Counted from the stretch's first letter, positions 6,616-14,484 are shown. The stretch: 64,000 nt of DNA from Minisyncoccia bacterium (GCA_050008535.1 JBEKML010000002.1:24732-88731); one strand, 5' to 3'. Program-made: numbers and translations. Notes: generated from the letters alone by a model not told the origin.

Positions 6616-6796
6616 CCGCAAGCAGAAGGGTTAGCTCAGAGGAGCTAACCCTTCCAAATATGAGTTTATAATTATTTGTAATTTCATATTTGGACTGAAT
6701 GTTGGTGTACTACGTCTCCATCAGATCTTCCGGCGACCAGGTGATCTTCTCGCCGTCGACCCACCCCTCCGTTCGATTCCCCGTGAGCGCCAACGG

Positions 6797-6870
6797 CAAG
6801 AAAAATACAGAGGGGCTTTGAAGAGAGCCCTTCTGAGTACTCGATTCAAAGCCCCTCTGTATTTTTCTTG
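6797..6870. repeat. 26-bp-stem hairpin element with conserved loop (GAGCCCTTCTGAGTACTCG), copy 1; abuts 3' end of tRNA-Glu
   Basis: Perfect inverted repeat caagaaaaatacagaggggctttgaa / ttcaaagcccctctgtatttttcttg; loop nearly identical to copy at 14415-14484. Confidence 0.65.
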
Positions 6871-7008: not shown

Positions 7009-7434
7009 TTGCTTCATTCGTTAAAATCTATGCTTTCTGTCTTCTTTTTTTACGGCGGCTTGGGAGTGCTTGCGTTGCGTCTTGCGCTCGGCGTGATTTT
7101 CCTTGCGCATGGGTGGCCGAAGCTTCGGCATCTGCAACAGACGGCAGTTGAGTTCGACGGGCTGGGCTTCAAGCCGGGCAGGTTCTGGGGGACGCTCGTC
7201 GCGCTCCTTGAATCTTTCGGCGGCATCGCGCTTATCCTTGGATTCTACACACAGACCTTCGCGGTGCTTTTCGCGCTCGAGTTTATCGCGATTGTCGTGC
7301 GGAAGCTTATAAAGAAACAGCCGTTCGTCGGCGGCTGGGAGCTTGACCTCCTTGTCCTTACCGCATTCCTCGTGCTCGCCCTGAACGGCGGCGGCGCCTA
7401 CTCGTTTGACCGGGCTTTCTTCCTTGGATGGTAA
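7009..7434 (+). CDS. DoxX-family membrane protein
   Basis: 4 hydrophobic helices, DoxX-like sequence (GGLGVLALRLALGVIFLAHGWPKL); TTG start at 7009 after GAAAGG, alternative ATG at 7030. Confidence 0.7.
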   Translation: MLHSLKSMLSVFFFYGGLGVLALRLALGVIFLAHGWPKLRHLQQTAVEFDGLGFKPGRFWGTLVALLESFGGIALILGFYTQTFAVLFALEFIAIVVRKLIKKQPFVGGWELDLLVLTAFLVLALNGGGAYSFDRAFFLGW

Positions 7435-8957
7435 AACGGTTTTTTGAGATCCTGCCTGGGGCGCTCGCTTGGGCAACGATCATCTTCATGTTTTTGTTTT
7501 CGTGGCTTCTCCCCGCGTGGGTTTCGATTTTCATCATCCTTTTCGACGTCTACTGGCTTTTGAAGACCATCTATCTTTCGCTCCATCTTCGCGCGACGTT
7601 TTCGCAGATGAAGAAAAACATGGCGGTGGATTGGCTTCTGCGCCTAAACGAATCGAAGGGCGTTCCCCGATGGGAAAATATTTATCACCTCGTGATCCTC
7701 CCGATGTATCACGAACCGTACGAAGTGGTGAAAGAGAGCTTTGCGCGCCTTTTTGAAACGCATTATCCGAAAGAAAAATTATTGGTGGTGCTTGCGCTTG
7801 AGGGGCGCGCGGGCAGGGCGGCGGAGGAGGTGGGAGAGCGGATCAAAAAAGAGTTCGGCGGAAAATTTTTCCGCTTTCTTGTAACGACTCATCCTGCGGA
7901 CCTCCCCGGCGAGATCCCAGGCAAGGGATCCAACGAAACCTGGGCGGCGCTGCGGGCGAAGGAAATCCTGCTTGATCCGTTGCACATTCCCGCGGAAAAC
8001 ATTCTTGTTTCGGTCTTTGACGTGGATACGCAGGTCTTTACTGAATATTTCAGCCGGCTCACCTACGTGTTTCTCACAGCGCAGAATCGCTTGCGCGCCA
8101 TCTATCAGCCGATCCCGCTCTTTACGAACAACATCTATGAGGCGCCGGCATTGGCGCGGGTGGTCGCATTCTCCACGACCTTTTGGCAAATGATGCAGCA
8201 AGCGCGCCCGGAACGCCTGACCTCTTTTTCTTCCCAATCCGTGCCGCTCAAGGTATTGCTTGATATCGGATTTTGGCAGAAGGATATTGTCTCAGAGGAT
8301 TCGCGGGTTTTTTGGCAATGCTATTTGCGCTATCACGGCGACTTCCGCGTGGAGCCGCTCTTATATCCCTTGTCCATGGACGCGAACGTGGCGCCCACCT
8401 TTTGGGCTACCATGAAAAATCTTTACAAGCAGCAGCGGCGGTGGGGATGGGGGTGTGAGAACATTCCGTACATGCTTCAGGGGTTCCGGCGCGATCCGCA
8501 GATCCCGTCCGGGAAGAAACGCTACTGGAGGTTCAACGTACTGGAAGGATTCCATTCGTGGGCGACAAATGCACTTATGATCTTTGCCCTGGGGTGGCTT
8601 CCGCTTTTTCTTGGCGGCCGACATTTTACCGATACGCTTCTTTCTTACAACTTGCCGCGGATCACGCGGTTCATCATATCGCTTTCCATGATCGGTATCG
8701 TGAGCTCCGCGATCTTGGGCATCCTTCTTTTGCCGCCAAAAACAAAAGGGCTGCGCGCCCGCAATTATCTTGTCTATTTTTTACAATGGGCCCTTATGCC
8801 TCTTACGCTCATCATCTTCGGCGCCTTCCCCGGGCTTGAAGCGCAGACGCGGCTCATGCTCGGCGGTCGCTTCCGCCTGGGCTTTTGGGTTACGCCCAAG
8901 GGGCGTAACCCAAAAGGGGAAGAGGGACCGGGGAAACATGATAAAATAAAGCAATGA
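7428..8957 (+). CDS. membrane-embedded processive family-2 glycosyltransferase (cellulose/chitin-synthase-like; DxD, SED, QQRRW motifs)
   Basis: N- and C-terminal TM segments, VFDVDT, VSEDSRVFW and KQQRRWGWG motifs. Confidence 0.8.
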   Translation: MVKRFFEILPGALAWATIIFMFLFSWLLPAWVSIFIILFDVYWLLKTIYLSLHLRATFSQMKKNMAVDWLLRLNESKGVPRWENIYHLVILPMYHEPYEVVKESFARLFETHYPKEKLLVVLALEGRAGRAAEEVGERIKKEFGGKFFRFLVTTHPADLPGEIPGKGSNETWAALRAKEILLDPLHIPAENILVSVFDVDTQVFTEYFSRLTYVFLTAQNRLRAIYQPIPLFTNNIYEAPALARVVAFSTTFWQMMQQARPERLTSFSSQSVPLKVLLDIGFWQKDIVSEDSRVFWQCYLRYHGDFRVEPLLYPLSMDANVAPTFWATMKNLYKQQRRWGWGCENIPYMLQGFRRDPQIPSGKKRYWRFNVLEGFHSWATNALMIFALGWLPLFLGGRHFTDTLLSYNLPRITRFIISLSMIGIVSSAILGILLLPPKTKGLRARNYLVYFLQWALMPLTLIIFGAFPGLEAQTRLMLGGRFRLGFWVTPKGRNPKGEEGPGKHDKIKQ

Positions 8958-10093
8958 AAGTCCGCCGGGGGTTTACTATCATTGAACTTCTGATTTTTGC
9001 CGCTATTTTTTCTTCTATCATGGCGGGGCTTATCACCGTGCTTATTACCATGACGCGCGTGCAGAGCCGCCAATCGTCGGCGACCGACGTGGAAACACAG
9101 GGACAATTCTTGCTCCAGCAATTTCAGTATTACATACAAACGGCACGGCTGGTCGATATGGTGCAGGATGCCGCGGCGGGGACGCTCAAGCTCCGGGAGC
9201 TAACCTTGGCACCCGATCCCACCTTCGTTACGCTTGCCACGGGGACAGTATATCTTCAGCAGGGCCTTGGCGGAGCGCTCCAGCCCTTGACCTCGAACAA
9301 GGTGACGGTATCCAACCTTTCGTTTATAAGGCATTACAATCTCAATAGTTCCTCAACGGCGTACGGCGTCGATTCGGCATCGTACTCTTTCACGGTATCA
9401 GCGAATACTTCAAATACTACTCAGCAATATTTCCAAAAGTTCCAATCGTCTGCGGCGGTTACGGCGCCCGTTCCCAAAATTGCCCTTATGCAGCAGACGA
9501 GCACGCTTGTTTACGGAACGAGTACGAACATGGCGGGGACCTATATAGGCAATAATGCCACGGGGAGTTTGCTCGTTGCGGTCGTTGTGAACACTAATCT
9601 CGTTTCTATTTCGATCGGGGACACCGCGGGCAATGCATGGAGCAACATAGCGAGCACGACGTACGCGGCATACAATCAGAAGATCACTATTTTTGCCGCG
9701 GCCAATGCGCGCAACAGCTCGAACACGGTTACGGCAACCCTCGGGGGAAGCGGCGGGTATAATCCTTCACTTTTTCTCTATGAATATCGCAGTGCGTCGA
9801 CCTCTTCTTTGGTCGATGCTTCCTCTACCCAGACGCAGTCAAACGCGACGGCCATATCGAGCGGTCCGGCGACGCCGACCTCGAATGTCGAGCTTGTCTT
9901 CGGCGTGATGTACCTGAACACGTGGCCGGCAACCCCGCCCGTAGCCGGATCGGGGTTCACCATAAAATCCTCCTCAAGCGCGAGCAATACCTTTATTGAA
10001 GATAAAAATGTTTACGTGACTGGCCCTGTGGTTGCCGACTGGGCGCTCTCGCAGGCGGCAAGTTCGTCCGCGACCGTCGTCACGTTCAAGTAA
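8954..10093 (+). CDS. large type IV pilin/pseudopilin-like protein with Ser/Thr-rich C-terminal domain
   Basis: Class III signal MKVRRG|FTIIELLIFAAIF (G-1, F+1, E+5); start overlaps stop of GT2 gene (ATGA). Confidence 0.8.
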   Translation: MKVRRGFTIIELLIFAAIFSSIMAGLITVLITMTRVQSRQSSATDVETQGQFLLQQFQYYIQTARLVDMVQDAAAGTLKLRELTLAPDPTFVTLATGTVYLQQGLGGALQPLTSNKVTVSNLSFIRHYNLNSSSTAYGVDSASYSFTVSANTSNTTQQYFQKFQSSAAVTAPVPKIALMQQTSTLVYGTSTNMAGTYIGNNATGSLLVAVVVNTNLVSISIGDTAGNAWSNIASTTYAAYNQKITIFAAANARNSSNTVTATLGGSGGYNPSLFLYEYRSASTSSLVDASSTQTQSNATAISSGPATPTSNVELVFGVMYLNTWPATPPVAGSGFTIKSSSSASNTFIEDKNVYVTGPVVADWALSQAASSSATVVTFK

Positions 10094-10098
10094 GGCAA

Positions 10099-10254
10099 GC
10101 GCCAGGCCGCAATGGTCTTTGCGGGTACGGGTGTCGGCGTGCTCCAGCGGCACGCCGCACCCTGCTCTCTCGGCGCGGCGACTCCGCGCAGACGCGGAGA
10201 CCAAGCTCGCCGCGCCTCCGAGAGCCCCCGCCAAGACCATTGCGGCCTGGTGCT
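10099..10254. repeat. GC-rich structured palindromic element (28-bp imperfect outer stem enclosing nested hairpins)
   Basis: gcgccaggccgcaatggtctttgcggg ... cccgccaagaccattgcggcctggtgc outer arms; internal stems ggcgtgc/gcacgcc and ctccgcg/cgcggag. Confidence 0.5.
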
Positions 10255-10288
10255 TGCCCCATGTACGATTCTGTAAGATAATCCCAGC

Positions 10289-11149
10289 ATGAAAGATTAT
10301 TCTAAAAAGTTAAAAGAATACGACAAAGAAAAGATCACGCTCATTAAACATCAGTGGGGTCAAAACGCGACTTCTCTCTATAACCAAGTTGTTCAAGCTT
10401 GGGACCATATTCCTTTTGGCAAAAAAATTGCTATTATTTCCTATAAAAAATTTGGGATGAAAAGTGCCCTAACCTTTTTCAAAAAGAACGGCTTAGTATG
10501 TGAGGTTGTGGGCAAAGGACCCGACGGCCTAAGGCTCGTTGAATGCGAAAAGAAGGAACATAACCATTTAAAACCTATAGAAATATCAAATATAGTGAAG
10601 TTTGATTTTCTCGGGAAAAGTTATAAAGCTGACGTTGGAAGCTCCATCTTTTCTAAAACAGGTCTTGATAAAGGAACAAGATTTCTTCTGGAATCATTCT
10701 TTTCTTGGGATATTGATCTCAATGGAAAAGAAGTCGTCGATATGGGAACGGGGTGGGGCGCAATATCTATAATCATCGCCAATGAATTTCCAAAAGCTCG
10801 AATTACCGCATATGAAAAGGATGATGCATCTTTCGAGGCGGCCAAAGAAAATCTTTCAGGATTTTCGCAAGTAAACGTAAAGCAAGTCGATCTTGCTCAA
10901 AATATCAAACGGCAACGTGGGACATTCGATTATATTTTATCCAACCCTCCGTTTCATGTTACCACCGAAGAGAGGCATAGGATTTTTAAATATGCAGATA
11001 GTTTATTAAAAAAGAAGGGTGAGATGATCTTTGTCGTAGAAAATTCTTTTACTAATCGATTTGCCCTCACCGCAAAATCTTTTTTTGACATCCTGCAAGA
11101 AGAGAAAAACGCTGATTATAGTGTACTCAGATGTAGGAAGTTTGATTAG
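10289..11149 (+). CDS. class I SAM-dependent methyltransferase, RsmC/RlmG-like (rRNA guanine-N2 MTase family)
   Basis: DMGTGWGAISI SAM-binding motif and NPPFH catalytic motif; gene visibly A+T-richer than all neighbours. Confidence 0.75.
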   Translation: MKDYSKKLKEYDKEKITLIKHQWGQNATSLYNQVVQAWDHIPFGKKIAIISYKKFGMKSALTFFKKNGLVCEVVGKGPDGLRLVECEKKEHNHLKPIEISNIVKFDFLGKSYKADVGSSIFSKTGLDKGTRFLLESFFSWDIDLNGKEVVDMGTGWGAISIIIANEFPKARITAYEKDDASFEAAKENLSGFSQVNVKQVDLAQNIKRQRGTFDYILSNPPFHVTTEERHRIFKYADSLLKKKGEMIFVVENSFTNRFALTAKSFFDILQEEKNADYSVLRCRKFD

Positions 11150-11320
11150 TGTCTCCGCTTGTGCTTGCGAAACCACGCGGGAGGGCGAGGGAGAAATCCG
11201 CGAGCGAATAGAAAATCCGCCGGGTACCCGGGAGCGGCGACCAGGGTGGCGGATTTTCGTATATGAGCGAGCTGGATTTCCCGAGTCCGAAGCAGGTTTC
11301 GCAAGCACAAGCGGAGACAC
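11149..11320. repeat. GC-rich palindromic element: perfect 26-bp terminal inverted repeat with nested 11-bp stem
   Basis: gtgtctccgcttgtgcttgcgaaacc ... ggtttcgcaagcacaagcggagacac; inner gaaaatccgcc...ggcggattttc; lies between convergent MTase and recG. Confidence 0.55.
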
Positions 11321-11324
11321 TAAC

Positions 11325-14414: not shown

Positions 14415-14484
14415 GCAGCAACGCCAGAGGGTTTTGAAACGAGCCCTTCTTAGTACTCGTTTCAAAACCCTCTGGCGTTGCTGC
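14415..14484. repeat. 27-bp-stem hairpin element with conserved loop (AGCCCTTCTTAGTACT), copy 2; 8 nt from 3' end of tRNA-Lys and just after EamA stop
   Basis: gcagcaacgccagagggttttgaaacg / cgtttcaaaaccctctggcgttgctgc perfect inverted repeat; loop matches copy 1. Confidence 0.65.

Follow-up and report, generated by a model that had tools for sequence, protein, structure and literature searches.

A small family of conserved three-way junctions at gene 3' ends in a subclade of Paceibacteria, with members behind a type IV pilin-like gene and a tRNA gene

One of the questions that this locus raises is what a GC-rich, multiply palindromic stretch of non-coding DNA does between two genes that are read in the same direction. 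The flanks are as the initial annotation described them, with a pilin-like gene upstream and a low-GC methyltransferase gene downstream, both on the + strand. The window, by which we mean the whole 64-kb stretch of DNA that was analyzed, holds mostly housekeeping genes, as judged from translations read by eye. By its recG-based loci and by source names, it falls in the Minisyncoccia/Paceibacteria, within the Patescibacteria. The pilin-like gene family is central to the epibiotic lifestyle and the DNA uptake of these bacteria, and homologues of the ORF at 8954-10093 are named PulG or ComGC in their sources. The palindromic element is called E1 here, its helices P1 to P3, and the related loci are given L numbers. 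The features, with positions counted from the first letter of the window, are as follows.

8954-10093, + strand: type IV pilin-like (pseudopilin) gene with an N_methyl motif; E1 follows its 3' end.
10094-10258, + strand: E1, the complete three-way-junction element of 165 nt, in the orientation of the upstream pilin-like gene; based on fold, family membership, covariation and a leave-one-out model.
10094-10125, + strand: P1 5' arm, 32 nt, beginning 1 nt past the pilin stop codon TAA (10091-10093).
10113-10233, + strand: the 121 nt that are absent from the sister lineage L167, flanked by the direct repeats CCGCAA (10107-10112) and CCGCCAA (10228-10234).
10126-10128, + strand: junction J1/2, TAC, of which AC is invariant in all three family members.
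10129-10162, + strand: P2 hairpin, made of GGGTG, a bulged T (10134), CGGCGTGCT, the loop CCAGC, GGCACGCCG and CACCC.
10163-10226, + strand: the whole P3 arm. Its 5' half has TCTC (10166-10169), a TC bulge, GGCGCGGCGA and the apical hairpin CTCCGCG-CAGA-CGCGGAG; its 3' half has an ACCAAGC bulge (10200-10206), TCGCCGCGCC, a TCC bulge (10217-10219) and GAGA (10220-10223).
10227-10258, + strand: P1 3' arm, 32 nt.
10254-10282, + strand: promoter-like site TTGCCC-17-GATAAT, with its -35 within the end of the P1 3' arm and its -10 ending 6 nt before the methyltransferase ATG.
10289-11149, + strand: RsmC/RsmD-type SAM-methyltransferase gene, context outside E1, with 37% GC against 54.5% for the window.

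The inverted repeat that closes E1 had been noted as 28 bp and is slightly longer, with 32-nt arms (10094-10125 and 10227-10258) that are separated by 101 nt and are complementary at 30 of 32 positions (94%), the exceptions being one G.T and one T.C. The nested hairpins named earlier were all located in E1: CGGCGTGC/GCACGCCG at 10135-10142/10150-10157, GGCGCGGCGA/TCGCCGCGCC at 10172-10181/10207-10216 and, innermost, CTCCGCG/CGCGGAG at 10182-10188/10193-10199. The predicted fold of the 165 nt (10094-10258) is a three-way junction with an RNA MFE of -137.1 kcal/mol on the + strand (z -13.8) and -139.5 on the - strand (z -13.4); none of 200 shuffles matches this fold energy. Folded as DNA, the element reaches -85.8 (z -13.7). 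E1 ranks first in stability among all 180-nt windows of the 64 kb and is also the longest-armed inverted repeat found there. Its pairing is nearly pure Watson-Crick, with only 0-2 G.U pairs out of about 68, and both strands fold equally well.

Since the E1 sequence is identical in more than 10 independent assemblies, it is not an assembly artefact. The claim that it spawns spurious ORFs on both strands was borne out, with five ORFs of 54-92 aa crossing it, and public assemblies list some of these as genes (88 aa in L007 and L166; the 92-aa P0031). In the Logan short-read contigs of the same species (L005, L164, and L165), contig ends fall repeatedly inside E1. From these ends, together with the 88- and 92-aa 'proteins' called from E1, it follows that assemblies are degraded and protein databases polluted by the element.

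Another question is whether E1 belongs to a known family or has copies elsewhere. Both a comparison with Rfam and a search for further copies of the 28-bp arm had been proposed, and both came out negative. A scan of the window against Rfam 15 at gathering threshold gave 8 tRNAs only, and over 9900-10450 at E ≤ 10 there was no riboswitch and nothing beyond mir-3064 (E 4.9) and RNaseP-T (E 7), which are noise, so even at this level no family matches E1. The related elements described below had no Rfam match at E ≤ 1 (L168 and L011). No second E1 arm was found in the window when up to 3 mismatches were allowed, nor in a model search of the 64 kb with filters off, and no second copy was found by BLAST or covariance model in 1.1 Mb of related loci; E1 is thus single-copy in the searched sequence. 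An 18-mer of the arm was searched against IMG/VR and JGI metagenome contigs and gave 61 single-arm matches with no E1 copy, the species' own contig not being among the JGI returns. Each of the 61 is inside a coding gene of an unrelated bacterium, in several cases at the metallo-beta-lactamase motif HxHxDHCGL, and they are therefore coincidences. Phage and plasmid records gave no E1 match, and in the literature we found no description of such an element in Patescibacteria. Smith-Waterman scores of E1 and E2 (a second palindrome of the window, described below) against their flanks and against relatives' spacers were at null level, which rules out that either is a duplicate of neighbouring sequence.

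Elements of the same build were found in relatives. Locus L167 was found by a protein search with the spurious ORF that spans E1, and L168 was reached via the closest full-length pilin homologue. In L168 (7150-7305) a 156-nt three-way junction starts 9 nt past the stop codon of the orthologous pilin gene, with its modules in the order of E1: P1 (32 bp), the AC junction, P2 with its bulged T, and then P3, in which the TC bulge, apical hairpin, CAAGC bulge and TCC bulge follow as in E1. A shorter member without the apical hairpin lies in L011 (6843-6960), where it abuts a tRNA gene (6773-6844) and has a T-run behind it, 3' of P1 (TGTTTTTTGG). The P1 helix has 32 bp in E1, 32 bp in L168 and 29 bp in L011, is near-perfect, and encloses exactly two arms. 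Three unpaired elements are invariant in the three members, namely the AC of J1/2, the bulged T in P2 and the TC/TCC internal loop in P3; the CAAGC bulge and the apical hairpin are confined to the long form (E1 and L168). The core motif TCYCTCG...CTCCGRGA, searched on both strands of 1.6 Mb, occurs only in E1, L168 and L011, and in all three it is on the strand of the upstream gene. From the gene end to the element start there are 0-10 nt, on the same strand (1 nt for E1, 9 nt for L168, and abutting the tRNA in L011). The downstream genes differ among the window, L168 and L167.

Other relatives have less or nothing. L167, a sister lineage with 82.6% identity over the pilin 3' end, has no more than a perfect 14-bp hairpin behind the pilin stop codon. 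This hairpin is homologous to the outer 14 bp of E1 P1, with two compensatory pair changes and with homology on both flanks, and exactly 121 nt (10113-10233) are absent from L167 relative to the window. The three-way-junction element is absent, despite a pilin gene, from L011 (at its pilin locus), L014, L015, L052 and L019; L019 has no element, yet its downstream gene and promoter are the same as those of L168. Contigs of the same species are 100% identical at E1 and are thus uninformative for covariation, and among them there was no empty-site allele of E1.

Covariation in relatives had been set as a test of the element, and it is positive, as two relatives show compensatory helix changes together with conserved unpaired nucleotides. 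A MAFFT alignment of the members was structurally wrong, and the alignment that was used (A4) was therefore made by hand, module by module, with N as padding; each of its rows (E1, L168, and L011) was checked to reproduce the real sequence. In A4, 98.3% of the cells are in standard pairs and both sides have changed in 44 of 68 pairs (26 of 32 in P1, 9 of 14 in P2 and 5 of 8 in the apical hairpin). None of 500 shuffles reaches the observed pairing, and alignments slid out of register give 40-48% pairing with 4-8 double-changed pairs. RNAalifold on A4 gives the same structure. It should be kept in mind that A4 was fitted to the structure, and that covariation in P1 would arise trivially in palindromes of independent origin. 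The evidence that is not trivial in this sense is that the members have one architecture and invariant unpaired nucleotides, and that P2 and the apical hairpin show compensatory changes.

To avoid circularity, a leave-one-out model (R2) was built without E1, on the L168 and L011 sequences alone. With it, E1 reaches 97.2 bits (E 9e-21) on the + strand and 31.5 bits on the - strand. The same model gives E2 and two simple long hairpins 28-38 bits on both strands, which is the generic-stem signal. In control searches, unrelated contigs gave at most 34 bits. E1 is thus about 60 bits above the generic-stem score with a model that comes from the other two members. We conclude that E1 belongs to a small, undescribed family of conserved three-way junctions at gene 3' ends in a subclade of Minisyncoccia/Paceibacteria (ultra-small Patescibacteria). 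The family evidence consists of only three members and a structural alignment made by hand, but the structural conservation of the family is unusually clear. The description of E1 as a multi-stem palindromic non-coding element rather than a simple convergent terminator is supported, as relatives share the architecture.

How old the element is can be read from the relatives. By identity of the pilin 3' coding sequence, the window and L167 are sisters, each about 72% identical to L168 and L019. The window and L168 share the element at an orthologous site, so most parsimoniously their common ancestor had it. L167 has lost the 121-nt core, by what reads in the sequence as a deletion between the direct repeats CCGCAA and CCGCCAA, and it therefore keeps the outer stem only. 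The opposite course, in which an ancestral simple terminator hairpin gained 121 nt, was overturned by the full junction of L168 at the orthologous site together with the sister placement of L167. Because the same element is found at the same site in a relative with different downstream genes, E1 is a native element and part of the pilin gene's surroundings. The initial annotation is thus right in placing E1 between the pilin-like and methyltransferase genes, but as a marker of that boundary it does not hold, since the element goes with the pilin gene. Between the lineages P1 has turned over almost completely, with almost no G.U or mismatch intermediates. Such a turnover fits template switching from arm to arm, by which the pairing would be maintained; in documented cases, template switching has produced perfect stems and kept them so (PMC8794818, PMC5941160).

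The window holds other palindromes in addition to E1. E2 (11146-11323) has perfect 29-nt arms with 120 nt between them (MFE -112 kcal/mol, z -11.8) and reaches from the stop codon of the methyltransferase gene to 1 nt short of that of recG; in sequence it has no relation to E1, and it has no Rfam match and is outside the three-way-junction family. Two long simple hairpins with 31- and 29-bp stems (6797-6870 and 14415-14484) directly follow the 3' ends of tRNA-Glu and tRNA-Lys. The two are homologous: they have the 12-nt loop (CCCTTCTKAGTA) in common, and compensatory changes are seen in the inner stem. In the outermost 10 bp their sequences are unrelated, yet each is perfectly paired. Strain L002/L009, at 99.2-99.9% identity elsewhere, cleanly lacks the second of them (H2, 14415-14484) and has a SNP cluster at the junction. 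In the 7.7-kb stretch at 6.7-14.6 kb all four intergenic gaps of at least 70 nt have a palindrome with 26-32-nt arms. The probability of four palindromes so close by chance is 0.006, and the stretch surrounds recG, where relatives vary in gene content.

One explanation is that the element is a functionless by-product, i.e., nested perfect inverted repeats that were made or extended by replication template switching in a genome tolerant of long palindromes and that persist only until they are deleted. Such an origin would agree with a pairing that is nearly all Watson-Crick and equal on both strands, with the documented template switching (PMC8794818, PMC5941160), and with rapid turnover, as seen in the 121-nt core deleted in L167 between short repeats and in hairpin H2 missing in strain L002; it is also favoured by the clustering of all four long palindromes of the window within 7.7 kb of variable sequence. 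Nevertheless, the same architecture, bulges and junction nucleotides are kept across lineages whose pilin 3' coding sequences are only about 72% identical, the L011 member sits at a non-orthologous site, and chance palindromes would not share a core, while the two-member model finds E1 about 60 bits over a generic stem. We consider a by-product distinctly unlikely.

The gene that follows E1 has a different history. The methyltransferase gene is present at none of 80 related recG loci, and in L011, L014, L015 and L052 the pilin-like gene and recG are convergent, -9 to +33 nt apart, and nothing unusual in structure is found there. It follows that the gene is a lineage-specific acquisition. The homology between the window and L167 runs to about 10279, a point within the promoter-like site, and the methyltransferase reads as inserted downstream of E1, from about 10280 onward. 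Elsewhere, homologues of the methyltransferase are ordinary genes in tightly packed surroundings, often with a GC content below that of the host, and none of seven contexts examined has palindromic flanks. In the 10254-10291 region the gene has no Shine-Dalgarno sequence and its promoter-like -10, GATAAT, is at 10277-10282; the two together suggest that its mRNA may be leaderless or near-leaderless.

Where the pilin-like gene meets recG, there is a hotspot of variable cargo (window 10280-11324; L168 7306-8912; L019 2250-3740; L167, reverse strand, 350-678). In L168, and partly in L019, the cargo is three small genes of 274, 123 and 64 aa, of which the 274-aa one is sigma-factor-like by eye; in L167 it looks by eye like a secreted lectin-type protein, and in L011, L014, L015 and L052 the junction has no cargo. 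A promoter (TTGACA...TGTAATTT) lies behind the L168 copy of the element.

With a SAM-dependent methyltransferase gene directly downstream, it may be asked whether E1 is the 5' regulatory leader of that gene, for example a SAM/SAH-type riboswitch, or an integron attC that marks a methyltransferase cassette, the more so as E2 lies behind the gene and the acquired gene is thus bracketed by two palindromes. Like E1, attC sites are defined by structure more than by sequence, have extrahelical bases and in some cases branched tips, and lie next to acquired genes that look promoterless. Both versions are very improbable. In L168 the same element precedes unrelated genes and in L011 it follows a tRNA, the seven contexts of methyltransferase homologues are without such flanks, and there is no Rfam riboswitch match at E ≤ 10. 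E1 differs from attC in having no R''/R' core sites, no unpaired central spacer, its stem being continuous, no integrase in the ORFs examined and no cassette array, and in being tied to a pilin gene. The sites RYYYAAC (R'') and GTTRRRY (R') are absent from either strand of E1, E2, H1 and H2 with 20-nt flanks. The usual length of attC sites is 57-141 nt, against about 165 nt for E1. E2, for its part, has no sequence relation to E1 and falls outside the family. The idea that E1 and E2 are the two ends of one mobile cassette was likewise rejected, as their sequences are unrelated, E2 is outside the family and the methyltransferase homologues come without palindromes.

The surroundings of the L011 member show a different arrangement. 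In L011 (6828-7118) a 271-nt segment with the three-way junction and a further hairpin lies between 19-nt direct repeats of the tRNA 3' end. The further hairpin (GGGTCGGGRAAACG...GTTTYCCCGTGG) recurs in L026 (5085-5262), there between inverted copies of a tRNA 3' end, and in L029 (at about 99); by their sequence, these segments look like tiny tRNA-targeting integrative remnants. Just upstream of recG, L011 has a lower-GC ORF of 247 aa (7129-7953), DUF218/YdcF-like by eye, which is bracketed between the L011 elements and a hairpin with 33-nt arms (7880-7953) and so echoes the bracketed methyltransferase of the window. In two different Paceibacteria, L020 (1861-2130) and L044 (7709-7982) have palindromic elements of about 270 nt with 24-25-nt closing arms and two inner domains (z -13 and -19). 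These have common internal motifs, e.g., GTGCTTTAnnGCAC...GAGGAGCGAC, and no Rfam match, and may be another structured-element family.

Could the family itself be mobile? According to this explanation E1 would be a non-autonomous mobile or integrative DNA element, whose folded single strand is the substrate of a recombinase or transposase encoded elsewhere, with copies inserted at gene 3' ends. The att-like setting of the L011 copy, inside the 271-nt segment between the 19-nt repeats (AATTCCTCGCGAGGGCACA, at 6828 and 7099), is in its favour. So are the patchy distribution among close relatives, the presence or absence of another hairpin family of the window between strains more than 99% identical, the variable-cargo hotspot that adjoins E1, and a fold that is equally good as DNA and on both strands. 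Against it, the copies of the window and L168 are at an orthologous site with no flanking direct repeat longer than 7 nt, and there is no target-site duplication; at E1 the longest flanking direct repeat is 3 nt with the boundaries shifted by up to 6 nt either way. Unlike transposon ends, the outer ends of P1 are not conserved between members. The searches turned up a single copy in the 64 kb and no more than three across 1.1 Mb of relatives, and no Pfam domain of a recombinase, transposase, reverse transcriptase or integrase was matched in the part of the window's ORFs that was screened, i.e., those around the locus and ten otherwise unannotated ones. The explanation is, on balance, rather doubtful. 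The same points bear on MITEs (Correia, RUP, BOX, and IS630-derived), which are, like E1, small, non-coding, foldable and patchy, with terminal inverted repeats, and from which E1 differs by the lack of a target-site duplication, by termini that are unconserved between members and, within the window, the 1.1 Mb of relatives and the viral and JGI contigs, by the apparent lack of multiple copies.

The mechanism that we put forward starts from the position of the family, a conserved, strand-specific, branched structure 0-10 nt behind a gene end. We propose that E1 is a 3'-end module of the upstream transcript, which may act as terminator, insulator or processing site, and we hold this to have about an even chance of being right. 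The element would be transcribed as the 3' tail of the upstream pilin or tRNA RNA, and its very stable structure would stop or attenuate read-through into the next gene. That gene would then fire from its own promoter, as may be the case for the acquired methyltransferase here, with the -35 overlapping the right arm. The module would also define and protect the 3' end of the pilin or tRNA transcript, possibly with double-strand-specific cleavage in P1, and the near-perfect pairing of P1 would be kept at the DNA level by template switching between the arms. An insulator function would suit the position of the element in the window and in L168, where the gene that comes next has a promoter-like site of its own.

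A similar arrangement is known from Enterobacteria. The REP/BIME and ERIC sequences are, like E1, non-coding, GC-rich, strongly folding palindromes behind gene 3' ends, in tandem or convergent pairs, and their presence varies between strains or relatives. REPs were proposed to attenuate read-through and to stabilise the upstream mRNA, and they are thus a precedent for a dual role as terminator and stabiliser in 3' UTRs (bioRxiv 10.64898/2026.03.23.713779). Yet REPs are imperfect hairpins of about 35 nt with a conserved sequence, hundreds of copies and a link to the RAYT transposase, whereas E1 is a 165-nt three-way junction, single-copy in the searched sequence, with a variable outer stem and a conserved core, and no sequence similarity between them was found.

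Intrinsic or bidirectional terminators are also close to the family, as they place a GC-rich stem right behind a stop codon or a tRNA 3' end, and the L011 member has a T-run as well. In the intergenic DNA of these genomes, long inverted repeats are 10-18 times denser than in coding DNA and, as with such terminators, occur preferentially at convergent junctions (9.4% of such regions) and tandem ones (4.2%), against 2.9% of divergent regions, though this orientation statistic is weak, with p = 0.037 when the window's own four elements are included and 0.15 without them. E1 departs from an intrinsic terminator in several ways. There is no U-tract behind E1 on either strand, nor behind the L168 copy, and no terminator-like site was called at E1; its stem is three to four times longer and branched, and its bulges are conserved. 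A plain terminator needs no conserved bulges or junction nucleotides, so the core probably does something more specific. Three further observations speak against a 3'-end module: the pilin gene is without the element in several relatives, the equal fold on both strands with 0-2 G.U pairs has the look of a DNA-level palindrome, and the other 26 intergenic gaps of at least 70 nt in the window have no comparably long inverted repeat (arms of at least 17 nt). We would class E1 as a structured extragenic palindrome or 3'-end element, and its function as a 3'-end module is what we infer from this position and structure.

A further possibility is that E1 is a small RNA gene of its own or a self-processing RNA, where P1 is a processing stem that releases a core of about 100 nt and the loops bind a protein or catalyse. 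The processing stems of rRNA and tRNA precursors, which are RNase III substrates, are well-established examples of a long near-perfect helix around a structured RNA, and in this the E1 family is like them, with one member abutting a tRNA gene. RNase III-type double-strand-specific RNases need two helical turns, and P1 is longer than that. Further points for an RNA are that unpaired nucleotides are conserved while helices covary, that the model signal is strand-specific and that the element is absent from Rfam. A small RNA is nonetheless unlikely: the start 1 nt past the stop codon leaves no room for its own promoter, G.U pairs are nearly absent, permissive Rfam scans gave no likeness to a ribozyme or small RNA, L167 lost the core but kept the outer stem, and three members only are known. 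A kink-turn in the UC/UCC loop was considered and set aside, as the tandem G.A pairs appear to be missing when the sequence is read.

A last option goes beyond known classes, namely that E1 is a new Patescibacteria-specific structured nucleic acid. It might be a released RNA with the UC/UCC loop, the bulged U and the AC junction as a binding or catalytic core, or it might be the folded single-strand recognition site of a hairpin-targeting recombination system, which would also explain the strain-variable hairpins and the cargo around recG. We put this forward tentatively, with a modest chance of being right.

The Patescibacteria (CPR) are a large and almost uncultured diversity, whose non-coding elements and transcript ends are little known. 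In practical terms, E1 gives rise to false ORF calls in public protein collections, and short-read contigs break at it. The seed alignment and the covariance model can be run on all CPR genomes. The family also gives a natural example of a helix of about 30 bp in which the sequence was nearly replaced while the pairing stayed nearly perfect, and this bears on the maintenance of stems by template switching. The result for these bacteria is a concrete and testable conserved structured element that is tied to the 3' end of a pilin-like gene.
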